From Escherichia phage phT4A, in sequence record NC_055712.1: a stretch of 64,000 nucleotides of DNA. One strand, written 5' to 3'. Of this stretch, positions 20,518 through 64,000 are shown in pieces. The position numbers and the translations under genes are program-made. The notes under the pieces were generated by a model. It searched no databases. It had not been told where the DNA came from and was given only the letters and a program-made list of their open reading frames with translations. The first letter of the stretch is position 1; every line of letters starts with the position of its first letter.

Positions 20518-21132
20518 ATGCAATTTAGATTATATCTAGTAGAGTTTAAAACTTCTACGGGAATAAAAATATATGGAGGTAAACGCCATTCTCCATTTAA
20601 TGATCCTAGACATGATTGTTATTGCGGATCTGGGGTATACATCAAACGAGCATTAAAAAAATATGGAAGAGAATGTATTGTTAATATACAATGGTCAAAA
20701 CCGTTTCCAAACAAGGATTTATTAGCGGAAGCCGAAGAATTACTTGTTGATGAGTTGATAGCATCTTATGATAATTGTGTTAATTTAGTTCGTGGCGGTA
20801 AAGGAGGTGCTTCTTTTTATAATCCAGAAGATAACCCTAATTTTGGTTCTAAACGATCTATTGAATCTAAAATAAAGATGTCAGAAAAGGCAAAAAATAG
20901 GGTTTATAGCGAGGAAGGACTAAAACGAAGACAGGAAGCCACTAGGGTCATGATTCAACACAGAAAGCCTCGTGATGTTTCTGGAAGCAAAAACCCAGCC
21001 GCACGAAGGGTAATTGTGGATGGAGTAGAATACTCAACATTGAAAGAATGTGGAGATCATTACGGGATAACTAAAAACTCCGTCTTTAGTCGAATAAAAT
21101 CTAAGAAATGGGAGGGATGGAATTATGCGTGA
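20518..21132 (+). CDS. GIY-YIG family homing endonuclease (Seg-like), free-standing
   Basis: 204 aa; N-terminal GIY-YIG-like YLVEF...IKIYGG and GSGVYIKRALKKYG (paralogous to the 33089 gene), NUMOD3-like basic repeats, C-terminal HTH-like VDGVEYSTLKECGDHYGITKNSVFSRIK; AT-rich; inserted between gp13 and gp14. Confidence 0.65.
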   Translation: MQFRLYLVEFKTSTGIKIYGGKRHSPFNDPRHDCYCGSGVYIKRALKKYGRECIVNIQWSKPFPNKDLLAEAEELLVDELIASYDNCVNLVRGGKGGASFYNPEDNPNFGSKRSIESKIKMSEKAKNRVYSEEGLKRRQEATRVMIQHRKPRDVSGSKNPAARRVIVDGVEYSTLKECGDHYGITKNSVFSRIKSKKWEGWNYA

Positions 21133-31434: not shown

Positions 31435-33003
31435 ATGTCTAAGAAAAACGAATTGATGGAAAAATGGAACGATCTTCTGGAGTCTCAGGAAGGCTTACCG
31501 GATATCGCTACCAAATCCAAAAAACAACTGATTGCTGCCATTATGGAAGCACAGGAAAAAGACGCAGAAGTTGATCCGGTTTACCGCGACGAGAAAATCG
31601 TTGAATCCTTCGGTGGTTTCCTGGCGGAAGCTGAAATTGCTGGTGACCACGGTTACGACGCAACCAAAATCGCTTCTGGTAACTCAAGCGGTGCTATCAC
31701 CAACATCGGCCCTGCTGTAATCGGTATGGTTCGCCGTGCGATTCCTAACCTGATTGCGTTCGATATCTGCGGTGTTCAGCCTATGACTGGCCCTACTGGT
31801 CAGGTGTTCGCTCTCCGCGCAGTGTACGGCAAAGATCCGCTGGCTTCCGGTGCTAAAGAAGCATTCCATCCGATGTTCTCCCCGGATAGCATGTACTCCG
31901 GTCAGGGCGCGGCTCCGAGCAACGGCTTTAACGAACTGGCTTCCGGTACTGCTATCGCTGACGGCGCTATCGTGTTCCACGATTTCTCTGAAACTGGTCG
32001 TGTGTTCCTCCAGAACGTTTCTGGCTCTCCGGTTACTGTAACTGGTTCTACCGCCGATGCTCTGGATGCTGCTGTTATCGCCGAACAGGAAAAAGGTACT
32101 CTGGCTGAAATTTCTTACGGTATGGCTACCAGTGTAGCAGAACTGCAAGAACAGTTCAACGGTTCTACTGGCAACCCGTGGAACGAAATGGGCTTCCGTA
32201 TCGATAAGCAGGTTATCGAAGCACGTAGCCGCCAACTGAAAGCACAGTACTCTGTAGAACTGGCTCAGGATCTCCGCGCTGTTCACGGTATGGACGCTGA
32301 CGCCGAACTGTCTGCTATTCTGGCAACCGAAATCATGCTGGAAATCAACCGCGAAATCGTTGACATGATCAACTATACCGCACAGGTTGGTAAAACTGGT
32401 TTCACTCAGACCGTTGGCTCTAAAGCTGGTGCGTTTGACTTCCAGGATCCGATTGATGTTCGTGGCGCTCGTTGGGCTGGTGAAAGCTACAAAGCTCTGC
32501 TGATTCAGATCGACAAAGAAGCAAACGAAATCGCACGTCAAACTGGTCGTGGTGCTGGTAACTTCATCATCGCTTCCCGTAACGTGGTTTCCGCTCTGGC
32601 TCGTATCGATAGCGGTATCACTCCGGCAGGTCAAGGTCTCCAGAAGACTCTGAACGTTGACACCACTAAAGCAGTATTCGCTGGTGTTCTGGGTGGCGTG
32701 TACAAAGTATACATCGACCAGTATGCACGTGGTGATTACTTCACCGTGGGTTACAAAGGCGATAACGAAATGGATGCTGGTATCTACTACGCTCCGTATG
32801 TTGCGCTGACCCCGCTGCGTGGTTCTGATCCGAAGAACTTCCAGCCAGTAATGGGCTTCAAAACTCGTTACGGTGTAGGTATCAACCCGTTTGCGAACTC
32901 TCGCTCTCAGGCTCCGTCCGACCGTATCACTTCTGGTATGATTACCAAAGAAATGTTCGGTAAAAACGCATACTTCCGCAAGGTTTATGTGAAAGGCTTA
33001 TAA
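31435..33003 (+). CDS. gp23: gp23 major capsid protein
   Basis: 522 aa; long identical runs to T4 gp23 (IGPAVIGMVRRAIPNLIAFDICGVQPM, DAGIYYAPYVALTPLRGSDPKNFQPVMGFKTRYG). Confidence 0.97.
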   Translation: MSKKNELMEKWNDLLESQEGLPDIATKSKKQLIAAIMEAQEKDAEVDPVYRDEKIVESFGGFLAEAEIAGDHGYDATKIASGNSSGAITNIGPAVIGMVRRAIPNLIAFDICGVQPMTGPTGQVFALRAVYGKDPLASGAKEAFHPMFSPDSMYSGQGAAPSNGFNELASGTAIADGAIVFHDFSETGRVFLQNVSGSPVTVTGSTADALDAAVIAEQEKGTLAEISYGMATSVAELQEQFNGSTGNPWNEMGFRIDKQVIEARSRQLKAQYSVELAQDLRAVHGMDADAELSAILATEIMLEINREIVDMINYTAQVGKTGFTQTVGSKAGAFDFQDPIDVRGARWAGESYKALLIQIDKEANEIARQTGRGAGNFIIASRNVVSALARIDSGITPAGQGLQKTLNVDTTKAVFAGVLGGVYKVYIDQYARGDYFTVGYKGDNEMDAGIYYAPYVALTPLRGSDPKNFQPVMGFKTRYGVGINPFANSRSQAPSDRITSGMITKEMFGKNAYFRKVYVKGL

Positions 33004-33026
33004 GTTATTGAAAAATAACGATATTA

Positions 33027-33053
33027 AAGGGAACCTTCGGGTTCCCTTTTTCA
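33027..33053 (+). terminator. rho-independent terminator after gp23
   Basis: GGGAACCttcgGGTTCCC followed by TTTTTC. Confidence 0.65.
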
Positions 33054-33057
33054 TTTC

Positions 33058-33065
33058 TATAAATA
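33058..33065 (+). promoter_or_regulatory. T4-type late promoter TATAAATA
   Basis: Exact TATAAATA 24 nt upstream of the endonuclease ATG. Confidence 0.45.
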
Positions 33066-33088
33066 GTGAAAACAATTGAGGCTATATT

Positions 33089-33724
33089 ATGAAACATATT
33101 ATCTACAAAATAACAAATTTGGTTAATAATAAAATTTATGTTGGTGCTCATTCAACAGAAGACATCAACGATTCATACATGGGTTCAGGGGTGGCTATAA
33201 AGGCGGCTCAGAGGAAGTATGGTATCGATAAATTTATAAAAGAAATATTACATATTTTTGATACCCGTGAAGAAATGTATGAAAAAGAAAGAGAGATTGT
33301 TAATCTAGAATTTGTTAATAATCCACATACATATAATATGGGTATCGGTGGTGATGGTGGCCCTATGTTGGGTATGTTTCATTCAGAAGAGAAGAAACAA
33401 GAAATTTCCAAGATTACTAAAGAGAGAATGACAGATGAAGTAAAATCTCGTCTCTCTAAACTTAAAAAGGGTAAACCACAGTCCAAAGAATCCAACAGGA
33501 AGCGCTCAGAGACGTTAAAAGCTAAATATATGAATGGACGTATAGACAGAGAGTATAAACCTCTCACAGAAGCGCACAAGGCGAAATTAGGCCGTTCTGT
33601 ATCGATAGATGGAGTTGTATACTCATCCGGATCGGAGGCGGCAAAATCCCTTAGTATGTCCCACTCTGGTTTAAAATATCGGATTAATAGCGACAAATAC
33701 CCTACCTGGAAATTTGTTGCATAA
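33089..33724 (+). CDS. GIY-YIG homing endonuclease (SegD-like), free-standing between gp23 and gp24
   Basis: 211 aa; canonical IYKITNLVNNKIYVGAHS GIY-YIG motif, NUMOD3-like repeats, C-terminal DNA-binding segment; AT-rich; T4 has segD at the same position. Confidence 0.8.
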   Translation: MKHIIYKITNLVNNKIYVGAHSTEDINDSYMGSGVAIKAAQRKYGIDKFIKEILHIFDTREEMYEKEREIVNLEFVNNPHTYNMGIGGDGGPMLGMFHSEEKKQEISKITKERMTDEVKSRLSKLKKGKPQSKESNRKRSETLKAKYMNGRIDREYKPLTEAHKAKLGRSVSIDGVVYSSGSEAAKSLSMSHSGLKYRINSDKYPTWKFVA

Positions 33725-33756: not shown

Positions 33757-35046
33757 ATGAGTGAAAAATTTTACACAATTAACAAGCTGGTGCGTCAGTC
33801 ACAGCTACCGCCTGGCCTGTCTAAAAAGGTTCTTGATGAGGCAACCGGAACAGAAACAATTAACGTAGCTAATACCCGTCCGGATCTGGTATCTCTTACC
33901 CGTGCGGTAAACAACCTGATCTACGGTGAACTTGTAGCAATTCAGGAAACTAATTTGCCTACCGCAACTCTGTTCGGTGTGCGTTATCGTAACCCTAAAG
34001 GCGATATGACGTTTTCCAGCGCTGCTACCTATTCCGGTAAGTATGCAAGCCGTGATAACATTCCAGTTGGTGCGGTTGGTACTGCCTATACCAAAGGCCA
34101 AGTTTTTAAACATCCGACAAGCGATGTCGTATACGAAGCAACTGATAGCGTAACTCTCGCAGGTGCTGATATTGATGAAGCAATTATGGTCGCAGTATTC
34201 AGCAATAAATTACGCCTGGCAAGCGAAGCCGCGCCAACAAGTCAGTATGAAACCAGCGAAGATATTAGCACAACTTCTTTCGAAATGGATCGTTGGAATA
34301 TCAACGTTCGTTCCCGTAAATTCAAAACTGAAATGACCGTGGAACTTATGCAGGATCTGGAAGCAAACCAATTCAACGCAGAAAATGTGATTGAAGATGT
34401 TCTGGGTACTGTTGCCAGCGAAGAAGTAAACAAAGATATCATCCAGACTCTGATCAACGTATCACATCGTTACAACGTTGATGGTGTGGTAACAAATGGC
34501 ATTTTCGATGCTACAACCGCATACACTGCAAAGGATGCTCCGGCTTTAGGTCGTTTCCTGTATCAATTAGTGTGTGAAATGGGGCAGGAAATGAATAGAA
34601 CGACTTCATTTGAAGCTACCTATGTCCTGGCCTCTTCTCGCGTTGTAAGCGTTCTGTCTGCGTCTGGTTGGATGCATGAAACTGATGAAACCCACCCGTT
34701 AGCAACAGGTCGACTTAAAAACGGTTATTATGTCTATACTGACACCAATACACCGTTTGATTACCTGTTGACTGGTTGCAAGTACGATCTGGGTGAAATG
34801 GATCATGTTGGCTCTCTGTTCTATACGCCATACACAGAAGCTGATCAGGCAGGTTCTATCAAGATTTCTGTTGATCCTCAATCCTTACAGCCTAAAGTTG
34901 CTATTCTGATGCGCTACGGTTTATCGGTTAACCCGTATACCACTGCTGCTAATGAAAGACTTGTGAAAGGTGATGACTGGGTAAACCTCTCAGGCAAATC
35001 TAAAATGAGTCAGATTGTTGGTATCAAACTTCCTAAACTGGGTTGA
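33757..35046 (+). CDS. gp24: gp24 capsid vertex protein
   Basis: 429 aa (T4 427 aa); gp23-like fold; synteny. Confidence 0.9.
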   Translation: MSEKFYTINKLVRQSQLPPGLSKKVLDEATGTETINVANTRPDLVSLTRAVNNLIYGELVAIQETNLPTATLFGVRYRNPKGDMTFSSAATYSGKYASRDNIPVGAVGTAYTKGQVFKHPTSDVVYEATDSVTLAGADIDEAIMVAVFSNKLRLASEAAPTSQYETSEDISTTSFEMDRWNINVRSRKFKTEMTVELMQDLEANQFNAENVIEDVLGTVASEEVNKDIIQTLINVSHRYNVDGVVTNGIFDATTAYTAKDAPALGRFLYQLVCEMGQEMNRTTSFEATYVLASSRVVSVLSASGWMHETDETHPLATGRLKNGYYVYTDTNTPFDYLLTGCKYDLGEMDHVGSLFYTPYTEADQAGSIKISVDPQSLQPKVAILMRYGLSVNPYTTAANERLVKGDDWVNLSGKSKMSQIVGIKLPKLG

Positions 35047-35080
35047 TAGTATAACCCAACGGGGATAATATTCAATAGGT

Positions 35081-35106
35081 GGAGTAGGGAAACTTACTCC
35101 ATCTTT
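35081..35106 (+). terminator. hairpin terminator after gp24
   Basis: GGAGTAgggaaactTACTCC followed by ATCTTTT. Confidence 0.45.
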
Positions 35107-35139
35107 TAATAATTATTATAATTAATATTAAATTAGATC

Positions 35140-35168
35140 TTGAATTTATAAATGATTTATGATAAAAT
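35140..35168 (+). promoter_or_regulatory. sigma70-type promoter TTGAAT-17-TAAAAT
   Basis: Same GATC-TTGAAT module as 575-603. Confidence 0.45.
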
Positions 35169-35224
35169 TTATTAATTATAATAATTATAGATCAAACAAT
35201 TTTTGAAATCAAGTAAAAATAAAT

Positions 35225-35253
35225 TTGATTTTATAAATTAGATCATGTATAAT
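35225..35253 (+). promoter_or_regulatory. sigma70-type promoter TTGATT-17-TATAAT
   Basis: TTGATT 35225-35230, 17-nt spacer containing GATC, TATAAT 35248-35253. Confidence 0.45.
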
Positions 35254-35292
35254 TATTCTTTTAATAATATATTATATTAGATCAATTTAAAT

Positions 35293-35320
35293 TTGACTAC
35301 TAATTAATATAGTATATTAT
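35293..35320 (+). promoter_or_regulatory. sigma70-type promoter TTGACT-16-TATTAT
   Basis: About 30 nt upstream of uvsY ATG. Confidence 0.4.
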
Positions 35321-35350
35321 AGATCAACTGGGTAAATTGGTGAGTATGTT

Positions 35351-35770
35351 ATGAGTTTGAAATTAGAAGATCTACAAAATGAACTTGAAAAGGATATGCT
35401 GATAGATCCCCTCAAGTTGCAATCAGAATCAGCGGATATCCCGAAGATTTGGGCTAAATGGCTTCGATACCATTCAAACGCTAAGAAAAAATTGATCCAA
35501 CTTCATGCGAAAAAAGAAGCTGATGTGAAGGATCGTATGTTGTACTACACCGGAAGGCATGACAAAGAAATGTGCGAAGTGGTGTATACTGGGACTACTG
35601 AAATTAAAATCGCGATCGCTGGGGATCCGAAAATTGTAGAAACCAACAAGCTGATCCAGTATTATGACATGGTGGTAGATTTCACCAGCAAAGCACTGGA
35701 TATCGTCAAAAACAAAGGATACTCTATCAAAAACATGTTAGAGATCCGTAAATTAGAAAGTGGTGCATAA
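35351..35770 (+). CDS. uvsY: UvsY recombination mediator protein
   Basis: 139 aa; LEDLQNELEKDMLIDPLKLQ...YYTGRHD pattern as T4 UvsY (137 aa). Confidence 0.85.
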   Translation: MSLKLEDLQNELEKDMLIDPLKLQSESADIPKIWAKWLRYHSNAKKKLIQLHAKKEADVKDRMLYYTGRHDKEMCEVVYTGTTEIKIAIAGDPKIVETNKLIQYYDMVVDFTSKALDIVKNKGYSIKNMLEIRKLESGA

Positions 35771-48083: not shown

Positions 48084-49517
48084 ATGAACAACAAAACTTT
48101 CGAAGAACTGAACAGCATCATCACTTCCGTAGATTCCTATAAGGTTTCTCACTGGTCGCAATATCCAACTGGCTCCGAAGAGGCGCTGTTTTATATTGAA
48201 TCTCGTGGTGGTAAATTTGATCAAGTAGTTACGGCTGGCTGTAACCGCCTTGCGCAAATCCTATCACGTCCGGTGACTATGGAAAACGTAGATTTTGCTA
48301 ATCGGTTGTACAAAATGCACTTTGGGCGCGAAATCTTCAACTACAAAGGTTGGAAAGAAATTGCAGAACTGGGTTACATCCCTCTTGAATTCAGAGCGAT
48401 TCCGGAAGGAACCCCAGTAGCGGTTAAAAATCCGGTTGCAACTTTCCATGCTGGGAAAAATGCGCTGTGGTTAGCAGGACACGTAGAAACCCTGGCGATC
48501 AGGGGAGTATGGTTCCCTTCAACCGTAGCAACTCTATCCCGCGAATGTAAAAAAGTGTTGAAGAAATATCTCAAGAAAACCTCCGATCTCGAAGGTGAAG
48601 CATTTGATATGGTATTACGTACCCGTTTGCATGACTTCGGCGCACGTGGAACCTCTTCTGCTGAATCTGCTGGTATTGGTGGCCTTGCTCATCTGTATAA
48701 CTTCCTCGGTACTGATACCGTAGAAGCGCTGATTATGGCTATCTCTCTGTTTGAAGATTGTCAGAAAGCGTTTGATGATGGTGAAATGGCGGCTGGTATT
48801 TCAATTCCTGCTCGCGAACATTCCACTACCGTTTCTTACGGCAAAGAAAACGAAGACCTTGCATACAAAAACAGTATTGAGATCTTCGGTGAAGGGATGT
48901 ATGCATGTGTGTATGATTCCTGGGATTTTAAAGCGGCGGTTCGCCGTATCGCAGAATATAAAGATTCTATTCTTTCTAAGGGCGGTACTCTGGTAGTTCG
49001 TCCGGATTCTGGCGATATGGTAGACAATATCATGTACGCTCTTGAAGAACTGGGCCGTATCTTTGGCTATACAGTGAACTCAAAAGGGTATAAAGTACTA
49101 CACCCAGCAGTAAGGATCATTCAAGGCGATGAAATTCATGGCCCTGAAACAATCAATCGGGTGTTGAACTGGATGGAGTCTAACCGTTGGGCGTCTGAAA
49201 ACATCGCGTTTGGTATGGGCGGCGGATTGCTTCAAGAAGTTACCCGCGACACTCAAAAATATGCGATGAAAATGTGCGCAATCAAAATTAACGGTGTGTG
49301 GACTGGTGTGTATAAATGTCCAAAAGGCGCTGAATGGAAAAAGAGTAAAAAAGGGTTGTTAATGACTATCACTGATGGTGTTAACTTTAAAACCATTGAT
49401 ACTCTGGAACAGAAAGTGCCGGAAGGCTGGAAAGATGCTATGATCACATACTATGTCAACGGAAAGATTACTGCCCGTGACACTTTAGAGGAAATTAGGA
49501 ACCGTGCCGGGATTTAG
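48084..49517 (+). CDS. nadV: nicotinamide phosphoribosyltransferase (NadV / NAMPT family)
   Basis: 477 aa; NAMPT-type motifs (RLHDFGARGTSSAESAGIGGLAHL, GMGGGLLQ). Confidence 0.8.
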   Translation: MNNKTFEELNSIITSVDSYKVSHWSQYPTGSEEALFYIESRGGKFDQVVTAGCNRLAQILSRPVTMENVDFANRLYKMHFGREIFNYKGWKEIAELGYIPLEFRAIPEGTPVAVKNPVATFHAGKNALWLAGHVETLAIRGVWFPSTVATLSRECKKVLKKYLKKTSDLEGEAFDMVLRTRLHDFGARGTSSAESAGIGGLAHLYNFLGTDTVEALIMAISLFEDCQKAFDDGEMAAGISIPAREHSTTVSYGKENEDLAYKNSIEIFGEGMYACVYDSWDFKAAVRRIAEYKDSILSKGGTLVVRPDSGDMVDNIMYALEELGRIFGYTVNSKGYKVLHPAVRIIQGDEIHGPETINRVLNWMESNRWASENIAFGMGGGLLQEVTRDTQKYAMKMCAIKINGVWTGVYKCPKGAEWKKSKKGLLMTITDGVNFKTIDTLEQKVPEGWKDAMITYYVNGKITARDTLEEIRNRAGI

Positions 49518-49806
49518 TATCCGCAAAAACGACAAAGGAACCGTGATTTTCTATGACAACATGCCCCTTGTAGCTCGCAAGGGGCTTTTTGCTAAAATCG
49601 CTGGGTATTCCTTTAAACTGGAAGAAGTCAACGACGAAACACTAAAAGAGATCGTAAGAATTGCCTTACAGTTAAGAGGTAAGAAAGACGAACAAAAAGC
49701 TATTGACATGATCAATAAATTGGGTGAAACTCAATGCTTCATAGTGAATCGTGGTTACAAGTACGATACCATTGCAAAATTTGAAAAAGGGCTTTGTGAA
49801 TTATGA
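49504..49806 (+). CDS. hypothetical protein
   Basis: 100 aa; GTG start with AGGAA RBS, overlaps nadV end. Confidence 0.4.
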   Translation: MPGFSIRKNDKGTVIFYDNMPLVARKGLFAKIAGYSFKLEEVNDETLKEIVRIALQLRGKKDEQKAIDMINKLGETQCFIVNRGYKYDTIAKFEKGLCEL

Positions 49807-50654
49807 GTTATTATGGTGTGATCCCATACACAGGAAACAAGCAAAAGCTACTTCCTGAACTGTTCAAATTATTTCCAGACAGAAACAGCTATATGCGATT
49901 CATCGACTGTTTTTGTGGTGGTTTGAGTGTGTCGCTAAACGTCCCTAAACCCGTTCTAAGCAACGATTACGATCGGACGTTGATTGATATGTATAAGCGC
50001 CTTCAAATGCTTCCTGACCTCTCTCCTGTGCGAGAATTGATTAAACAGCATGGTCTGGGTAAGAACGAGAAAGAAGCGTATCTCACATTTCGTGATGCGT
50101 ATAATAAGAACAAGGATCCTCTATGGCTCTACGTTCTGATCCTTCATTCGTTTAGTAATGTTAATCGAACCAACGATAAAGGCGATTTTAACGCCAATTT
50201 TGGTTGTAGAACGTTGAATGATTCTACCGTTAAACGGTTTGAACACTTCAAAAATAATGTTCGGGGGATTGAATTCTCTAGCGCATCGTTTAAGGATCTT
50301 GATATCTGTTTGAATGATTTTGTGTACTGCGATCCGCCGTACCTGATCACTGATGCAGTTTATAACAAGTTCTGGAACGAAGAACGCGAGCATGAATTAT
50401 ATGATTTTCTCGATAATTTAAACTCTGATGGTATCAAGTTTGGTTTATCAAACGTGACACATCATGCAGGAAAGCAAAATGATATCCTGATCGAGTGGAT
50501 GCAAAAATATAATGTGCATAACCTCGATAAAAAGTATCTGTTAGGCCAGCATACTGATTCTTACGAACAAAATAAAACGCAAGAAGTCTACGTGTGCAAC
50601 TACCAGAAACGCGACGTAAATACATACCCTGAAACACTGGATGACTTAATGTAA
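49803..50654 (+). CDS. dam: DNA adenine methyltransferase (Dam, GATC-specific)
   Basis: 283 aa; extensive similarity to T4 Dam (YTGNKQKLLPEL, FCGGLSVSLNV, DPPY motif VYCDPPYLIT). Confidence 0.9.
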   Translation: MSYYGVIPYTGNKQKLLPELFKLFPDRNSYMRFIDCFCGGLSVSLNVPKPVLSNDYDRTLIDMYKRLQMLPDLSPVRELIKQHGLGKNEKEAYLTFRDAYNKNKDPLWLYVLILHSFSNVNRTNDKGDFNANFGCRTLNDSTVKRFEHFKNNVRGIEFSSASFKDLDICLNDFVYCDPPYLITDAVYNKFWNEEREHELYDFLDNLNSDGIKFGLSNVTHHAGKQNDILIEWMQKYNVHNLDKKYLLGQHTDSYEQNKTQEVYVCNYQKRDVNTYPETLDDLM

Positions 50655-50662
50655 GGTAACAT

Positions 50663-50938
50663 ATGTTTAAGATTTTTGGTTATATCCCTTCTGTTTACAA
50701 TTGCGCTCCATGCCTGAATTCTAAACGTCTCCTGGACGCAAAACGAAAAGAATATGAGTTTGTTTCTGTAGCCGATGAAAAAGACGCAGACGGCAAACCG
50801 ATCCTGAATGAAACGGTCATTTCTGAACTCGAAAGCCTGTTAGGTACTCGTAGACTGACCATGCCTCAAATTTTCCACGATGGTAAGCACATCGGCGGCT
50901 TTGACCAACTGCGTGAGTACGTTCGCACGTTGGGATAA
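50663..50938 (+). CDS. nrdC: NrdC thioredoxin/glutaredoxin
   Basis: 91 aa; CAPC active site; MPQIFHDGKHIGGFDQLREY matches T4 NrdC. Confidence 0.85.
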   Translation: MFKIFGYIPSVYNCAPCLNSKRLLDAKRKEYEFVSVADEKDADGKPILNETVISELESLLGTRRLTMPQIFHDGKHIGGFDQLREYVRTLG

Positions 50939-50969
50939 ATATTAACACCTTTATTTGATTGGTGTTATT

Positions 50970-51452
50970 ATGCTCACTAAACGTATTACTAAGAAAGATT
51001 ATCCATCCATTAAACAAGCTCTTTTTGAACAGCAAAACGGCTTGTGCGCGTTATGTGGTCGCCCTTTAGAGGGTGACCTTGAAAAGCATCACCTTGACCA
51101 TGATCATGCTCTATCTGGCTCTAATGCCGGACGTGTGCGCGGCCTCCTATGTAACCTATGCAACGGTACAGAAGGTATTGTAAAGCACAAATTTAATCGT
51201 TCTGGTCTGGTTTCCCGTGATGTTGATTACATCGAATGGCTAGAAAGCCTGGTAGCATACCTCAAACGCGACTATTCACAAAACCGTATGCACGACAAAT
51301 TTATACCCGATAAGGTTAAATGGTTTACACGCCTGACTAAATCGGATATGATAGCCGAAATGATTTCTATGGGCTTTGAGTACTCAGAAACTGAGGATCG
51401 CAAGGCTTTAGCAAAGAGCTATAGAAGACAATTAATGAAGGCAACCAAATGA
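50970..51452 (+). CDS. gp49: endonuclease VII (gp49, Holliday junction resolvase)
   Basis: ATG 50970; QQNGLCALCGRPLE...HHLDHDHALSG...VRGLLCNLCNGTEGIVKHKFNRSGL matches T4 endo VII. Confidence 0.88.
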   Translation: MLTKRITKKDYPSIKQALFEQQNGLCALCGRPLEGDLEKHHLDHDHALSGSNAGRVRGLLCNLCNGTEGIVKHKFNRSGLVSRDVDYIEWLESLVAYLKRDYSQNRMHDKFIPDKVKWFTRLTKSDMIAEMISMGFEYSETEDRKALAKSYRRQLMKATK

Positions 51453-51711
51453 AAGTAGAAAAANNNNNNNNNNNNNNNNNNNNNNNNNNNNNNNNNNNNN
51501 NNNNNNNNNNNNNNNNNNNNNNNNNNNNNNNNNNNNNNNNNNNNNNNNNNNNNNNNNNNNNNNAAAACGTAGGTTATGGACAGGATATACCCTGGAGGCT
51601 TTACAGGCCGACCCAGAACGTTCTAAGCTACTTCCTTACATTGATGTTCTGATTGATGGTAAGTATGAAAAAGATTTGCCAACAGAAAAAGCCGTTTCGC
51701 GGTTCAGATAA
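51449..51711 (+). CDS. nrdG: NrdG anaerobic ribonucleotide reductase activase (fragmented by assembly gap)
   Basis: ATG 51449 overlaps gp49 stop; post-gap frame encodes LWTGYTLEALQADPERSKLLPYIDVLIDGKYEKDLPTEKAVSRFR, matching the NrdG C-terminus; the radical-SAM CxxxCxxC region is missing in the gap. Confidence 0.55.
51464..51563. other. assembly gap (100 N)
   Basis: Run of N inside nrdG. Confidence 0.95.
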
Positions 51712-57100: not shown

Positions 57101-57907
57101 ACTCGCGGCGTTGTAGCTAACGTTAAATTTCAGGCTCCTGAAATTCAGGCAACTAGCAAAGTGTCTTTAGGTAGTGATAGCGTTATTTCTGCAAGCGGTT
57201 CTAACCTTTTACTGGGGGTGAACAGTAAGACAACGCAGATCAATACATCCGATGCAGGTAACATTGTAGCGGCTGAATCTGGGAACTCTTACAAAGTCTT
57301 TACTGAGAAGAACGCGCAAACCTTGCTGAATCCTACGTATGTACGTAAAGCAGGTGATACGATGTCTGGACGGTTGACAATCAACAACAGTTCTCTTATC
57401 ATCGCAGGTCAAGCGGCTTGGTCAACTCAGGATGCAGTAAACGAAGCATCACGGGGATACTGGACAGCAGAAATTACCTCTGCTGCACAATACAACTTGC
57501 TTCCTGGTTATGCGGTTCCGGTTCTCGAACCAGATCCGATTAACCCAGATATTATGATTGTAACCCGTTATACCTACGTTAAAGCACCTGGTACGTTAAC
57601 TCAGTTTGGTAACGGAACCGCATACACTTATCAGATTTGGGCACCTCGTCCGACCTCTGGTACTGGTGTTAACGCGTTGGCGCAATCCTTCTGGATCCGT
57701 CAAATGAATCCAATTACAGGTAAATTTGATGAATGGGGCCGCATGTATACGAGCAACAACCCGCCTACTGCTGGTGAAATTGGGGCAACGTCTGCTGTTG
57801 GTACTACGGTTAAAAACATGACTGTTACTGATTGGATCAAAGTTGGTAATGTTAAGATTTACCCAGATCCGGTTACTCAGACAGTTAAATTTGAGTGGGT
57901 GGCATAA
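54134..57907 (+). CDS. gp34: gp34 long tail fibre proximal subunit
   Basis: ATG 54134 (MVAKSFRARSGLDAAGEKVINV...); N-terminus, internal ATETRRGxAxxAT repeats and C-terminus (GNVKIYPDPVTQTVKFEWVA) match T4 gp34. Confidence 0.92.
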   Translation: MVAKSFRARSGLDAAGEKVINVGKADRNTLSDGVNVDFFNEFNGIQQYDPTRGYSQDMAIIYARRIWYAKQNIASPAGAFDESKWIATRNDPKWVYSNVTTPDGSIIDSGSYIMADGRFTELLYLLPDNPTEGDVITFKDCGGLVGVNSILVKSNTRQIRLRAVQSAQYRLTHPYMIATFIYNGNVWRVSEALDNRDSEIVNATGTGSFQLQSGMTVFRNSATGKITLQLPKYANDGDVITTYDADKMNSINVAVLQIYPGSGHTISDGASTGVTSVTSQKSGFGMFIFDAQNSQWKVYDADNRVRLRRIYSDLNAVPNDYVFVTANPSGAVPNVTVTLPTDVADGDRVYVSLYMMGKNQNCTIKVKDGTTDKIRTNKNMMQFPQRKDYPPDDWFSVTSLAFNAGSDYLPYIEFSYLKATKEWVVANYRPIVERVDATNRTRTGVIALAAQAEVNKNLEDNPNDETAITPMTLANKTATETRRGIARLATTAEVNKLSTDTYLDDVIVTPKKLNERTATETRRGLAEIATQAETNGSTDDITIVTPKKLHNRIASPTLTGILALVATGGTANTNTDRAQAGTGIYDHSDYQKAVTPKTLREYKATELQSGAVWLANLNEVINGTVASSNIPTVVTPEMLHKKTSTDARIGLIEIATQAETNAGTDYTRAVTPKTLNDRTATEGLTGIIAIATTAEVSAGTVTNKAIVPSKLKGYLDDTSHITVATADGLTQSGTIWTTVNIGIQSATETQRGTLRVATQSETNAGTLDTVFVTPKKLHAKKATESAEGIIQVATAAETTAGTVANKAVSPKNLKNTIQVDTSWQATDLVRGTVKLSKGAGTWSGNDVAGSTLPDDGYAAVGVAVSPYELNLTLKHYLPIGAKAVDADKLDNLDSSQFIRRDVAQTVNGALTLTQTTTVQANINSTADASFRVMNVNGDLNVGDGSSMGKLRLNGGSANDWSIQASAASGRIAMISTGNTSTVHLSVYNDTRGVVANVKFQAPEIQATSKVSLGSDSVISASGSNLLLGVNSKTTQINTSDAGNIVAAESGNSYKVFTEKNAQTLLNPTYVRKAGDTMSGRLTINNSSLIIAGQAAWSTQDAVNEASRGYWTAEITSAAQYNLLPGYAVPVLEPDPINPDIMIVTRYTYVKAPGTLTQFGNGTAYTYQIWAPRPTSGTGVNALAQSFWIRQMNPITGKFDEWGRMYTSNNPPTAGEIGATSAVGTTVKNMTVTDWIKVGNVKIYPDPVTQTVKFEWVA
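55561..55705 (+). repeat. direct repeats inside gp34 (25-nt exact repeat AACAGCTACTGAAACGCGTCGTGGT at 55561 and 55681)
   Basis: Encodes repeated ATETRRG(I/L)A fibre motif. Confidence 0.7.
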
Positions 57908-58843
57908 TGTCAAACTTAATGGCGGGGTTCGGCCCCGATTTTGTAGAAACGCAAATTCTATCGGAAACAAACAGCGTAACTTACAGAATAACCGCAAAGG
58001 CAACACATCCCAATGCGGTTCCTAATCAGTATGAGTTTACACTAAATCAAAAGGCGGTAGGGACACCGCCTAGTGTTGGGATCAACGTATGGAGAATTAA
58101 CAATGCTGTAGTTGATCCAATTAAAACCTTCACATTATCGAATGATAATTCAGCAACTGCAAACAAAGCGTTTGTTGAATATATGGATGCTCAACCTTCT
58201 GGGCTGTATTTGATAATGACTAACGGTGAATACAAAACAAGCCAAATCGTTGATGATTGGTTTGCTAAAAACAGATCCGTTATGTGGCAAGGCGCTGATT
58301 TCGCTCAGAGATTCCCAAATTCTGCATATGTTGCATTGTATGGGGCTTCAAAATCTCGTATACTGATTGAATCGTTTTACGCGAACGATGGAGTTTTAAA
58401 AGAAGATTCACGCGCATCAATCGATCTTGTCTATGATAACGTTGGTGATGTTGGGCGAACTGGTGTACCTTTCCGATCTGTTGAAGATACGGAAGAATAC
58501 AATTCAACCAATGGATCTGAATATAAAGTATATCCTGTTGCAAACCCAGTGATCTCTAAACTGGCTGATTATGGTATGGCTCCTGGATTAGCTATGATGA
58601 TTGCTGGTGATTTTTACGCCAGCAAAGCATTATTGGATGCTGGATCAACAACAAGGGTTACTGTTCGATGGTTTACGGGTACTGCTCAAACTTCATCATC
58701 GGTGATTGAAGTTCCTGCAAATAAACCTGATGAGTGGTTACGATTTGAACAGTTCTATACGATCCCTAGTGGTTGTGATGGATTTAACGTTGCTGTATCT
58801 CGTTATCCTAAACCCGCTACGGATAGTTTATCTGCGTATCCGT
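57907..58843 (+). CDS. gp35: gp35 long tail fibre hinge connector (3' end runs into gap)
   Basis: ATG 57907 overlaps gp34 stop; >=312 aa before the N run; position as T4 gp35. Confidence 0.6.
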
Positions 58844-58943
58844 NNNNNNNNNNNNNNNNNNNNNNNNNNNNNNNNNNNNNNNNNNNNNNNNNNNNNNNNN
58901 NNNNNNNNNNNNNNNNNNNNNNNNNNNNNNNNNNNNNNNNNNN
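58844..58943. other. assembly gap (100 N)
   Basis: Run of N; probably hides gp35 3' end, a gp36-like gene and the first codons of the next fibre gene. Confidence 0.9.
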
Positions 58944-59215
58944 TTTAGCAAAAATTCAATTCCTACGTAGCACAGTTGCGGGGAAAACACCTACTACAAG
59001 TCAGCTTGCAGATGGTGAACTGGCGATCAACATGGCTGATTATGCCATTTACACGAAAAATGGTTCTTCGATCGTTCAGTTAGCGGGTAAAGGTATCCCA
59101 GAAACAAATACCAAAAAATTAACAGTAAATGGGCCTAGTGCTCTTAATGATACCGTTACCGTAGCGGAAGGTAAAACTATTACTTTCACCAACGCGGATT
59201 TGAGCGGGGGTATGG
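58944..59215 (+). repeat. fibre 5' module, copy 1 (near-identical to 63446-63717)
   Basis: About 250 nt nearly identical (2-3 mismatches), then divergent but homologous. Confidence 0.85.
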
Positions 59216-62200
59216 TTCGTCATATCACTGGTAAAAACGCGCTTAATGATGGTTGGTACATCGGTTCTGGTGGTGAGAGCAATAAAGGGTTTTTAGAAAT
59301 CGGTACAATTGATGACGGTGATGAAGAGATCCGTTTCGTTTCCCGTGGTTCTGGTGATACTGTTCGTCGTACTCTGAAACTTATTGATTCCGGTGGTAAC
59401 ACTCGCGTACCAGGTAACATCTATATTGATGAAGCTATGGGCGGTGGTGGTTCTGCTTTTATTTCAAAAAACAAAGCATATTTCGGTGCTGGCGGTGCTG
59501 ATATCTATATGCGTAACACTGCTGGCGGTGCGACAAATCAGTTAACGATCACTGATGGCGGTGAATTGCTGTTTCAAGCAAAACCTGTATACTGGGACGG
59601 TCGTAAACCGACTTTAACCGAATTGGGGATCGGGCGGGTTGAAAACGCGCGTCAAATGCAGCAAGACAATTGGCCTATAACTACAGGTAATGAAACCCGA
59701 TGGGTTAAAGTTGCTCTTTTAAAAGATCCTGGCTCAGGTCATAGTCGCTTGCAACTGATGGTGACTAACGGCGGTAACTATGGTTCTACACGCGGATCGT
59801 TCGATTTTATCGATTGTTCTGCTCGTAGTATGCCTTCAACATTAACGGCTGCAAATATTCGTTCTTATCTGCAAATTCGTCGATTGGGCGATCCGGCAAT
59901 GGATGACACTAACCAGATGCGTTATAGTTTGGTTCGCACATCCGAAGGTTTGGAATTGTGGTTTACTCAAAGATCGTTCATCGGTAGTACAAAAATTGCT
60001 CTGTTATCTACGGCTGGCGTGACTGAATATTATATTCCTAGTGGATATACATCACAAACAACCGCTCCGGATGGTTTGATCGAGAGTAAGCCTATTCGTA
60101 TCTATGACGAAATGAACAAACCTAGCCTTGACGATGGTACTGATGGTATTCTGTCTGTTGCTAAAGGTGGTACAGGCGCAAGTACAGCGGCTGCTGCTCG
60201 CACAAACTTAGGTTTGGGTACTGCTGCAACCCGTGATGTTGGTACAGGTTCCGGACAAGTAATGCTTGTTGGTGCTTACGGTTTAGGCGGTAAGGGTACA
60301 TCATATAGCATCGCAAATGCTCGCGACTTCCTGAAACAACTGCGTACTGATGGTTCTCAGTTCATGCGAAATACGCTTGGTACTGACATTAACTATGGTA
60401 TGGGCGCAAGTTTTTATAGTTCCGTATCAGATGTTCATGCAGTGATCTCGGTTGATTGGAATACTGGTCGCGTTAAAGTTGGTGCAACTAATGATACTAA
60501 CCTTAACTCAGATACAGGAAGAATCAACTTCCAGGAACTGTACGGTACTGCATTTAAACCGACTCCGGATGACGTAGGGGCTGTTGCACGTGCTGGTGAT
60601 ACGATGTCTGGTGATCTGACGATCTCTAAAGTGTCGCCTGGTTTCCATTTGAATGCTGAGAGCGGAAACTCCGTAATTTGGTTTAAGTATAAAGGGGTTG
60701 AAAGTGGTGCTGTGTGGGCGTTGCCTAATACTGCCTCTTCTGGTGAAGTTCGCATTCGTGCCAGAACGTCGGGCGGAACGACTGGGGGCGAATTCTCATT
60801 TAAATCAGACGGTACATTTACATCACCTGGTAATATCAATATTACTAGCGGCGCTTTCAACGGTAAAAGTGTCAATACTCAGTATGCGAACTTTAATAAC
60901 ACAAGTTCAACAACAACCGAACAAACCGTTTCTATTAGTGGTTCGCAGCACACTCCTCTGTTACTGAATAGACCGACTAACTCGAACTTGTCTATCGGGT
61001 TTAAACTTTCCGGAATGAACATGAAACGTTTGGGTATCGATGTAAACGGTGATATTCGTTACGGTGAAGCCGAAAACCAGACACAAAACGCATGGCTGTT
61101 GACTTCGGATACCATAAACAGATGGAGTGTTAACTTCGGGCGTGATATTAACGTTGCAGGTGTAGTTAATTCAACTGGTGGATTTACTGGCCCTGTTACT
61201 GCATATGATTTGACCGGGGTAACTCAGGATCTTGATGCTTTAACATTGAACAATGCCGAACCAGGACATATTAAAGTTTATTCGTGCCGTAGTATGGGTG
61301 GCGGTGATAACATCACCAATAAACCTTCCGGCGTAGGTGGTAACTTTATTGTTATCGTTGAATGTCTCCGTAAAGTCGGCGATACTGATTACACTAACCG
61401 TCAAGTATTACGCGCATCGGACAATAAACGCAGTTGGGAACGTTGGTTTACTGTTAGCGGTACTGCTAAAGCCTGGACACCGTGGAGAATGAACGTTGTT
61501 AGCGGAAACGATGACGATGTATCATTTAAATCTGTTACCACAACTACAGGAAACCTGAACAGTGGAAACGATCTGATTGTTGCGAACAACGCTCGCGTAG
61601 GTGGCAACTTAGGGTTAGGTGGTGCTTCTTCCACGACATACACTGATAAAGGTGTTGTGATTGGTAACGGTAGTGCGCTGTTAGAATCCACTGATGGTCG
61701 CATGATTATTGGTAGTTCTGGTGCTGGTCGTGCTGTTGAATTGCGTCCTGGTGGCCCAACTCAAACCAACAACGGGATCAAAGTGACTGCTACCTCTGGA
61801 AGTGGTGGTGATACTGCGATCGAGTATGCGCAAGGGGTGAAAATCCGGGCAAATAACGGTGGTGCGTTGATTATTTCTGCTAAAGCTGGACAAACGATTT
61901 ATCTACGTCCTCAAGGAGATACATCCAGCACAAACGAAACAAGGATTGATTCTAGTGGTAACATGATAGTTAATGGTAATATCAGTGCAAACGGAAATAT
62001 GTCTGCTACTGGTACGTTAACTGTTTCTGGTGCTACTACATTAAACAACACATTAACGGTTAATAATGTAGGGCCAATCGAGAAACGGGGGATCAGGACG
62101 TATACAGAAGGTTCTGTTACTGTCAACGAAACCGACGGCATTACGATGTTTGGTAATGGCACAATTCATGGCACAATGCGATTAGTTGAGAGAGTGAATA

Positions 62201-62817
62201 ATACTACTTTCATCGGTCTGCAAACTTCCATTAATGACACTACAAACGGTTGGTTTGAATTCCACCACACAGGAAAATTCAAATCAAACAATATCGAAGC
62301 CTCTGGTAATATTGTTAGTTTGACTGGTTCCATTGGTGCTGTTGGTGCATTGACTGTAACGGCTCCTTCTTCTGATAACGGTACTGACCATATTTGGTTC
62401 CGTAACTCTGATGGATCTGAACGTGGTGTTATCTATATGCCAGGCAATGCTAATATTGGCGGTTTCCGCGTTCGTGGTGTGGAATGGCAATTTGATGGCG
62501 GTGCTAGTCAGTTTATCGGCCCTGGTGCTCGTTGGCGTATTCACCCTGATGGTAATATTCAGGCTGATGTTTTTAGCGGTTATCTGAATAACTACATCAA
62601 TGATCGGTTTAACGCGTGTGCTCAGTGGGTTCGTACTGGTGCTCAACAGGACTTTGGTCAGATCGGTCGTCCTGCTCCTGGTTTAACAGTTCCTGCTGGT
62701 TGGGTTTTAGTTGGTCTTAACGCCAACGGTAACGAAGCTAACCAGAACATGCAGTTAATCGGTGGTCGTTTGCAGGTATGGAAGAATAACGTTCAATGGG
62801 TTGATTCTGCAACTTGA
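58944..62817 (+). CDS. gp37: gp37-like long tail fibre distal subunit (5' end in gap)
   Basis: Post-gap frame begins LAKIQFLRSTVAGKTPTTSQLADGELAINMAD, matching T4 gp37 residues 3-35 ([32 protein letters not shown]); ~1290 aa; C-terminal receptor region unlike T4. Confidence 0.8.
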
Positions 62818-62822
62818 TAAAA

Positions 62823-62847
62823 TAGGGGCTTCGGCCCCTTCATTCTT
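62823..62847 (+). terminator. hairpin terminator after gp37-like gene
   Basis: GGGGCttcgGCCCC followed by TTCATTCTT. Confidence 0.5.
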
Positions 62848-62859
62848 AAAGGTAAAATA

Positions 62860-63261
62860 ATGATTGTTAAACAAATGAAAGGTATTCGCTGGCATCATAA
62901 TTTTGAAGGTGGTGCTTACTATCGTGATTGTAATGACAAGTGCTGGTATGAATTTCGTAATTCTTTGGATAAAAATTCCCATATCATTATAGTTGATGCT
63001 AAAACCAATAAAATCATTAACTATTATAACGGTGATGATCCTACGATGATTGGATTGTTTGCTGATAAAGAAATGATTCTTAATGTGTATCAGCTATCAG
63101 AATTTCCTGTTAATGACTGGGGAGAATTCTCTAAGCGAGAATTTAAGTTCGAAGATGATAAGGTAGTCATGACGAAAGATGTTGAACTTCCGAAATCTCG
63201 AACAAAAGAAGATATCATGGCAGATTTGATAAAACTTCAAAAAGAGCTAGAGGTAATGTAA
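62860..63261 (+). CDS. hypothetical protein, low-GC insert between tandem fibre genes
   Basis: 133 aa; visibly AT-rich codon usage relative to neighbours; terminators on both sides. Confidence 0.5.
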   Translation: MIVKQMKGIRWHHNFEGGAYYRDCNDKCWYEFRNSLDKNSHIIIVDAKTNKIINYYNGDDPTMIGLFADKEMILNVYQLSEFPVNDWGEFSKREFKFEDDKVVMTKDVELPKSRTKEDIMADLIKLQKELEVM

Positions 63262-63266
63262 TTTCT

Positions 63267-63296
63267 AAGGCTACCTATATGGTAGCCTTTTTGTTG
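63267..63296 (+). terminator. rho-independent terminator
   Basis: AAGGCTACCtatatGGTAGCCTT followed by TTTGTTG. Confidence 0.6.
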
Positions 63297-63339
63297 TATG
63301 CTAAATATACCTATAGCAACCTAAGAAGAGTCTTATAAA

Positions 63340-64000
63340 ATGGCTNNNNNNNNNNNNNNNNNNNNNNNNNNNNNNNNNNNNNNNNNNNNNNNNNNNNNNN
63401 NNNNNNNNNNNNNNNNNNNNNNNNNNNNNNNNNNNNNNNNNNNNNGGCTGATTTAGCAAAAATTCAATTCCTACGTAGCACAGTTACGGGGAAAACACCT
63501 ACTACAAGTCAGCTTGCAGATGGTGAACTGGCGATCAACATGGCTGATTATGCCATTTACACGAAAAATGGTTCTTCGATCGTTCAGTTAGCGGGTAAAG
63601 GTATCCCAGAAACAAATACCAAAAAATTAACAGTTGATGGGCCTAGTGCTCTTAATGATACCGTTACCGTAGCGGAAGGTAAAACTATTACTTTCACCAA
63701 CGAGGATTTAAGTGGTGGAATAACTCGTCATATCGTTGGCAAATGCGCCACTAATGATGGTTGGTACATCGGTTCCGGTGGTACAAGCAACAATGGTATT
63801 CTTGAAATCGGTACTATTGATGACGGCGTTGAAACCATCCAGATCGTACAGCGCGGCGCAGGCAACGTTGAAGCCAGAAAGTTAGTCTTGCTTGATGGTT
63901 CGGGTAATACGAATCTTCCTGGTGATTTAAGATTAACCACCAATAAAGCTGTTAAAATTTCGAATGGAAGCACTCTTACACTAGAAATGGGCGTAGGTGC
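63340..64000 (+). CDS. second gp37-like distal tail fibre gene (partial; interrupted by 100-N run; open to window end)
   Basis: ATGGCT before the gap, then GGCTGATTTAGCAAAAATTCAATTCCTACGTAGC = (M)ADLAKIQFLRS..., same N-terminal module as 58944 copy, then a divergent sequence. Confidence 0.7.
63346..63445. other. assembly gap (100 N), possibly spurious
   Basis: Flanks share GGCT; joining them gives ATG GCT GAT TTA ... in frame with the T4 gp37 N-terminus. Confidence 0.85.
63446..63717 (+). repeat. fibre 5' module, copy 2
   Basis: See 58944-59215. Confidence 0.85.

Follow-up and report, generated by a model that had tools for sequence, protein, structure and literature searches.

A probable Tfa-type tail-fibre assembly chaperone with a reduced or alternative C-terminal module downstream of gp37 in Escherichia phage phT4A

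The open reading frame (ORF) at 62860-63261, which starts with ATG and encodes 133 aa on the plus strand of the analysed stretch of Escherichia phage phT4A DNA (64,000 nucleotides of record NC_055712.1, hereafter the window), was identified as the gene of a Tfa-type chaperone whose C-terminal module is reduced or of an alternative kind. The N-terminal ~108 residues of the product are homologous to the N-domain of Mu Tfa U and have the same fold, and the protein co-varies with the tip of the fibre encoded by the preceding gene. It is very likely that the protein acts in trans as the assembly chaperone of gp37 and so does the work for which T4 has gp38, lambda has Tfa and Mu has U. It is an ordinary, already annotated tail-fibre assembly chaperone in the expected place. 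The features of the region are collected in Table 1.

Table 1. Features of the ORF and its surroundings in the window.
Feature	Coordinates	Strand	Basis
Tfa-type tail-fibre assembly chaperone, 133 aa	62860..63261	+	PHROG 136 match and identical RefSeq protein
Beta-rich N-terminal domain, about residues 1-108, fold of the Mu Tfa U N-domain	62860..63183	+	
C-terminal helix RTKEDIMADLIKLQKELEVM, residues 114-133, in place of Caudo_TAP	63199..63258	+	Helix 116-132 in the model; conservation; no Pfam match
Shine-Dalgarno-like AAGG, 7 nt 5' of the ORF ATG	62849..62852	+	Sequence; KLB23 has an annotated RBS here
gp37-type distal long-tail-fibre subunit, about 1290 aa	58944..62817	+	Identity and synteny; first 8 nt lost in a gap
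Last 64 aa of gp37, tip domain ending IGGRLQVWKNNVQWVDSAT	62623..62814	+	Common to JD18, F48, IME523 and TG1
C(UUCG)G tetraloop hairpin between the gp37 and chaperone genes	62824..62839	+	GGGGC-UUCG-GCCCC; conserved
Intrinsic terminator, 9-bp stem and T-run, ending the late fibre transcription unit	63267..63296	+	Folding; annotated in KLB23; conserved in KP27
Exchangeable host-range segment relative to KP27 (approximate): distal ~730 aa of gp37 and chaperone gene	60620..63266	+	Identity drop
Holin gene t, first 5 nt (ATGGC), cut by the gap	63341..63345	+	100% identity to Lemur_ER36 and KLB23; holin CDS start in both
100-N scaffold gap, not length-true	63346..63445	.	N run
KP27-like 5' end of another gp37 allele, on its own contig and not adjacent to the ORF	63446..64000	+	Sequence identities

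The product of the ORF is identical to RefSeq YP_010089172.1, 'tail fiber assembly protein [Escherichia phage phT4A]', a name that is given in RefSeq and also by two GenBank submitters. The submitters of Klebsiella phage KLB23 recorded HHpred similarity to 'tail fiber assembly protein U'. Purifying selection acts on the gene; comparison with the homologue of phage JD18 gave a dN of 0.13, and dS between homologues is saturated, which precludes a numeric dN/dS. The protein is highly charged (15 K, 13 D and 11 E). About 47 records in the phage collection carry an ORF at least 80% identical to it. Two chaperone homologues bear other labels, 'single-stranded DNA-binding protein' in VAC13 (MZ322895.1, 78059-78457) and 'long tail fiber' in phiA85 (PQ678658.1, 76908-77306), both of which are probably mis-annotations.

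The ORF matched PHROG 136, 'tail fiber assembly protein', with an E value of 5.8e-13, its residues 1-130 aligning with positions 3-132 of the 178 of the profile. A Pfam scan of the ORF returned no match at E <= 10, Caudo_TAP (PF02413) and Gp38_N included, and the NCBIfam scan gave nothing usable; the Caudo_TAP controls (lambda Tfa, Mu U and the homologues P0011 and P0017, described below) all matched in Pfam. Pairwise BLAST of the ORF to lambda Tfa and Mu U was not significant. A HMMER scan of 1.84 billion representatives recovered only 19 clusters at E <= 0.001. With the HMMER profile of the family, the top PDB sequence was 5YVQ_B, the Mu Tfa U chain (E 2.9e-5). Since three family members possess a canonical C-domain, the profile was rebuilt from the short-type members only; in hhalign, the C-domains of the Caudo_TAP-bearing relatives inflate the matches to both Mu U and lambda Tfa, and similarity of the ORF to lambda Tfa appears only when they are in the profile. 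The short-type-only profile matched 5YVQ_B with a HMMER E value of 1.3e-4 and Mu U with an hhalign E value of 3.7e-6, ORF residues 18-106 lying on Mu U 26-105. Matches of a shallow five-sequence profile to designed TIM-barrel repeats in the PDB were spurious, and the Mu Tfa match needs the deeper profile. Comparison of T4 gp38 with the ORF gave a BLAST E value of 0.57 and an hhalign probability of 0.2% (E 0.26). Among the functions considered in the original prediction was a fibre chaperone of a different family. The interpretation given there was partly supported.

The AlphaFold model of the ORF is confident (pLDDT 92.5, pTM 0.75); its beta-rich domain gives way to a helix spanning residues 116-132. 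The top matches to this model among the viral predicted structures of BFVD were annotated tail-fibre assembly proteins, and Foldseek aligned it with the TG1-type protein at an E value of 2e-8. In 5YVQ, as described in PMC9608196, the resolved part of TfaMu is the N-terminal domain bound to the distal fibre. The ORF has this N-terminal fibre-binding domain of TfaMu fold, and its gene lies directly 3' of a fibre gene with whose tip it co-varies. The C-terminal Caudo_TAP domain, however, is absent, the ORF ending about 45-60 residues earlier with one helix. Because the Tfa N-domain is present and Caudo_TAP is missing, we filed the protein as Tfa-type with a reduced or alternative C-module. Mu U (TfaMu, PDB 5YVQ chain B) resembles it in the fold of the N-domain, with an identity of only 16-19%; Mu U has 175 aa and a Caudo_TAP C-domain (E 7e-37), whereas the ORF has 133 aa and a single 20-residue helix.

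The preceding gene encodes a gp37 with 99.4% DNA identity to that of KLB23 and 90.5% amino acid identity to gp37 of phage Lemur_ER36. A Pfam scan of this gp37 found no domain, and the intramolecular chaperone Peptidase_S74 is absent. A chaperone acting in trans is therefore expected for the gp37 of the window, unlike that of phage KP27 (locus L016, 5602-6768), which contains Peptidase_S74 (E 1.8e-14) followed by a coiled-coil tail, VKELSAEVKNLKAEIEELKSK. Several gp37 genes with the tip found here are labelled 'chaperone of endosialidase'; the window gp37, 86% identical over the last 160 aa, lacks a Pfam S74 match.

The ~64-aa tip (...IGGRLQVW..WVDSAT) is common to the fibres of the window, JD18, F48, IME523 and TG1, with identities to the window of 37-70%, and is absent from the fibres of T4, KP27 and Patroon. 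It occurs in five T4-like genera infecting Klebsiella, Enterobacter and Yersinia and has no Pfam family. In JD18, F48, IME523 and TG1 a homologous chaperone N-domain is encoded directly 3' of the fibre bearing the WVDSAT tip. Homologues of the ORF directly follow the fibre gene in Slopekvirus, Jiaodavirus JD18, Marfavirus F48, Kanagawavirus IME523 and Tegunavirus TG1; in the T7-like Teetrevirus Patroon the homologue lies between the tail-fibre and holin genes. Across records, the identity of the ORF and that of the last 160 aa of gp37 go together (100/100, 85/86, about 80/74-76, 50/63-67 and 39/37%). These data show that the ORF co-varies with the fibre tip and suggest that the last 64 aa of gp37 are the binding target of the chaperone N-domain.

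Two longer homologues, P0011 (193 aa) and P0017 (175 aa, of the Yersinia TG1 type), have their N-domain in common with the ORF (E 8e-22 and 3e-14, respectively); between the N-domains of the ORF and of the TG1 type, hhalign gave an E value of 7.9e-23 at 33% identity. In both, the N-domain is followed by a Pfam Caudo_TAP domain (E 4e-30 in P0011, E 1e-9 in P0017), in place of which the ORF and most relatives have a 20-residue terminal segment. The protein of Yersinia phages TG1 and phiR1-RT (Tegunavirus, 175 aa) occupies the same slot between gp37 and the holin gene and accompanies the same 64-aa tip of gp37, but it carries a Caudo_TAP C-domain where the ORF has the RTKEDIMADL...L helix. Since TG1 shares the tip and the N-domain and differs in the C-terminus of the chaperone, the comparison suggests that tip specificity resides in the N-domain and that the C-terminus is generic.

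Five residues of the helix (R114, K116, L123, E129 and L130) do not vary in an alignment of 21 short-type sequences, and three more (I119, D122 and L126) reach at least 90% conservation, while the identity of the N-domains goes down to 23%. The conserved hydrophobic residues 119, 123, 126 and 130 have a 4-3-4 spacing, which, judged from the sequence, would correspond to the a/d core of a coiled coil. It is equally conceivable that the counterpart of this helix is the final helix of the TfaMu N-domain and not a reduced C-domain. The 133-aa proteins may possibly constitute an undescribed 'minimal Tfa' subfamily, a proposal that we regard as tentative, in which a near-invariant helix RTKEDIMADLxKLQEEL replaces Caudo_TAP and the N-domains drift with different tips. 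So delimited, it numbers about 19 clusters (50% identity) in a set of 1.84 billion proteins, from T4-like and T7-like enterobacterial phages. The 128-aa homologue of Patroon (locus L021, 3414-3800) has a C-terminal helix, RTKEDIMADLLALQAELQKL, nearly identical to that of the ORF. Despite this near-identical chaperone helix, the Patroon fibre tip has no sequence similarity to the T4-like tips. The T7-like Autographiviridae with a homologue also include Erwinia, Yersinia and Pantoea podophages of about 39 kb.

We propose that the chaperone gene would be transcribed late together with gp37, the UUCG hairpin between them being a conserved T4-type mRNA element and the 3' hairpin the terminator of the unit. 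The N-domain would dock on the C-terminal tip of the nascent, unfolded gp37, that is on its last ~64 aa ending with WVDSAT. The C-terminal helix, with I119, L123, L126 and L130 at the a/d positions, may then bring three chaperone-fibre units into register, the amphipathic helix taking over the role of the helical Caudo_TAP domain of canonical Tfa; alternatively, it may make an additional conserved contact with the fibre. Folding of the trimer would start at the C-terminus of gp37 and run toward the N-terminus, as was proposed for Tfa proteins and Pam3 gp25 (PMC9608196). The roles of the N-domain and the helix are taken from their co-distribution and from the Mu and Pam3 literature (PMC9608196). 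Cyanophage Pam3 gp25 and the Peptidase_S74 chaperones are comparable by description, combining a fibre-binding beta domain with a helical oligomerising element that sets the trimer register (PMC9608196); in the intramolecular Peptidase_S74 chaperones this element is joined covalently to the fibre until its cleavage.

The protein might chaperone gp37 and afterwards stay on the virion tip as a cap or co-receptor binder, a role proposed for TfaMu and the Alteromonas fibre chaperones. TfaMu, which has the same N-domain fold, stays on the fibre (PMC9608196, PMC10579305), and the ORF is strictly paired with one type of tip. Retention is nevertheless unlikely: T4 offers the nearest genomic analogue, and its gp38 is absent from the particle (PMC9608196). 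Release of the assembly chaperone after its action on gp37 would be in keeping with that analogue.

The original prediction located the ORF between two fibre genes. The region 62400-63345 is, however, 100% identical to the Klebsiella phages vB_KpnM_Lemur_ER36 and vB_KM5a1-KLB23, both of the genus Slopekvirus (Straboviridae), in which the order is gp34, gp35, gp36, gp37 (1288 aa), the 133-aa gene and holin gene t; about 170 further Slopekvirus records match it at 80-95%. Four stretches of the window each consist of exactly 100 N (5338-5437, 51464-51563, 58844-58943 and 63346-63445). The run at 58844-58943 replaces about 930 nt of reference sequence, in which gp35 ends, the whole of gp36 lies and gp37 begins with its first 8 nt. 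For this reason the runs are scaffold gaps whose lengths are not true, and the record is a scaffold, not a finished genome. A '1640-aa fibre ORF' at 57895-62817 was rejected as an artefact, in which gp35 is read through N into gp37. Downstream of the chaperone gene, the holin gene starts at 63341, where the reference reads ATGGCTGAGAGA, and is interrupted by the gap 5 nt later. The sequence after the gap starts with GGCTGATTTAGC; its first letter is base three of a gp37-type start codon, and its frame differs from that of 63341.

The fragment 63446-64000 encodes a sequence closer to KP27 gp37 (93.5% amino acid identity to its N-terminus) than to the gp37 of the window itself (80%), and the best DNA match of the fragment to any phage record is 94.2%. 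The window holds gp37 5' ends of two kinds, with 91.6% identity across 382 nt, which would be expected of a phage with two tandem distal-fibre genes forming a dual host-range module, the chaperone serving one of them. Such an arrangement is very improbable: the two copies are split by a gap within the holin start and the second begins, as a contig end would, at the gp37 start codon; this gp37 5' end is present in one copy per genome in 166 of 166 related phage records; and all ten gapless contigs, metagenomic or isolate, that encode the identical 133-aa protein have the order gp36 - gp37 - ORF - holin. The placement between two fibre genes was hence mistaken. Most simply, the assembly would have combined two Slopekvirus variants with different host-range segments, and the alternative branch would have been scaffolded end to end. 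The fragment 63446-64000 probably comes from this second variant, which is plausibly of the KP27 type, and the missing shared piece of 930 nt may have fallen below the contig-length filter. Before the second gap, window positions 48500-51463 gave no blastn match at E <= 1e-10 to the syntenic stretch of Lemur_ER36, and the sequence after that gap (51464-51563) matches Lemur_ER36 at 97%. This part is either a variable region of accessory genes or a misplaced contig.

The ORF lies, as the original prediction had it, in the position of T4 gp38, the slot gp37 - gp38 - t being common to both phages. With T4 gp38 it has in common the slot, the presumed job, the preceding UUCG hairpin and a similar GC deficit, but no detectable sequence similarity, so that the likeness of the proteins is one of position and presumed role alone; the tip of T4 gp37, a His-rich needle, is unrelated to that of the window. 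The slot is not reserved for chaperones. In KP27 an adhesin of the T2/S16 type lies in the identical place, between the UUCG hairpin and the terminator and holin leader (Pfam Gp38_N, E 1.3e-23), and is paired with the gp37 ending in Peptidase_S74. About 54 records in the phage collection carry a KP27-type adhesin with an identity of at least 80%, and the genus Slopekvirus has both the chaperone-type and the adhesin-type arrangements in the one slot. The swap of tail-fibre assembly protein and gp38-like adhesin within Slopekvirus was already described in a 2026 preprint (10.64898/2026.05.12.724579). The occupation of this slot by a Gp38_N adhesin in sister Slopekviruses such as KP27, together with the persistence of some Tfa proteins (Mu, Ur-lambda) on the fibre (PMC9608196, PMC10579305), could suggest that the ORF itself is such an adhesin, a part of the virion that sits on the fibre tip as a cap and itself recognizes the receptor. 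We consider this scarcely credible, as the ORF has neither a Gp38_N domain nor glycine-rich motifs, its Pfam search was empty, BLAST against KP27 gp38 gave an E value of 4.0 and its fold is that of the Tfa N-domain, not the gp38 polyglycine sandwich. The lack of the Gly-rich character of gp38 adhesins, noticed earlier from the sequence, was thus confirmed (6 Gly in 133 residues).

The stronger AT-richness of the ORF was confirmed by calculation: its GC content is 32.8%, compared with 42.4% for the window and 44.5% for gp37, which corresponds to the 1.8th percentile among 402-nt windows and to the lowest value (z about -3) among the 57 window ORFs of at least 100 aa. The check by codon position agreed, GC2 being 0.24 and GC3 0.29 against means of 0.37 and 0.39, respectively. 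Other low-GC spots of the window are ~35001-35400 (21.6%), ~281-680 (24.9%) and ~32941-33340 (30.3%); 20518-21132 has a GC content of 35.9% and a GC3 of 0.235. The chaperone gene is 5-13 points below its own fibre gene in six of six genera checked. The chaperone/fibre values are 33.8/43.6% in JD18, 35.1/43.7% in F48, 29.4/42.0% in IME523, 33.1/41.6% in TG1, 45.5/50.7% in Patroon, a phage of 50% GC, and 33.9/40.9% for T4 gp38. The GC deficit is a property of the gene class, in which a protein rich in Lys, Asp, Glu, Ile and Asn adjoins a fibre rich in Gly, Ala and Thr, and not the mark of a recent import.

Hairpins were indeed found on both sides of the ORF. The upstream one (62824-62839) has a folding energy of -11.7 kcal/mol and a weak T tail, and 15 of 200 shuffled sequences fold as well; the downstream one (63267-63289; -15.5 kcal/mol, z -4.4), with its T-run, is a canonical intrinsic terminator. 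A UUCG hairpin is kept after gp37 in T4, JD18, KP27, F48 and IME523, whichever gene follows, and in F48 and IME523 the stem has undergone a compensatory swap from GGGGC/GCCCC to GGGCC/GGCCC. The terminator and holin leader from 63267 are 92.5% identical in KP27, where they lie downstream of a different gene. Between the gp37 of the window and that of KP27 the first 560 aa are 66% identical and the remainder 22-31%, and DNA similarity returns at 63267. The unit exchanged is the distal part of gp37 with the chaperone gene, and both hairpins belong to the conserved backbone.

These results do not fit the independently acquired cassette that had been suggested, in view of the GC deficit in all six genera, T4 gp38 included, and of hairpins conserved around other genes. 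Clear homology to a known tail-fibre assembly chaperone, or a GC content no different from the average, had been named in advance as what would speak against the cassette; the homology was found (PHROG 136, Mu Tfa U) and the GC difference is real. The roles in superinfection exclusion or receptor modification that had also been proposed found no support, since the protein has no hydrophobic, transmembrane or signal segment (Kyte-Doolittle maximum 19-residue mean 0.63) and matches no such family. That the ORF is foreign cargo of this or another accessory kind, a terminator-bracketed low-GC cassette between fibre genes, has next to no probability, for although it has the lowest GC of 57 ORFs, hairpins on both sides and a place within the segment that differs between Slopekvirus lineages, the deficit scales with genome GC (45.5% in Patroon), both hairpins persist when a gp38 adhesin occupies the slot, the Tfa-like homology and fold are unambiguous, and the setting between two fibre genes is itself a scaffold artefact.

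For T4-like late operons these findings mean that low GC and flanking hairpins are unreliable signs of horizontal acquisition. The dual-fibre appearance and the 1640-aa 'fibre' of NC_055712.1 are scaffold artefacts, which probably reflect two co-assembled host-range alleles. In the engineering of Klebsiella phages, the gp37 tip of Slopekvirus or Jiaodavirus should be swapped together with the chaperone gene, because the last part of gp37 and this gene travel as one unit. The sole point of interest, and a modest one, is the short conserved C-terminal helix, which provides a modest lead on the mechanism of the chaperone. Should this helix alone set the trimer register, perhaps by forming a three-helix coiled coil, no smaller trans-acting element of fibre trimerisation would be known, and the helix would also offer a portable tag for the expression of engineered fibres.
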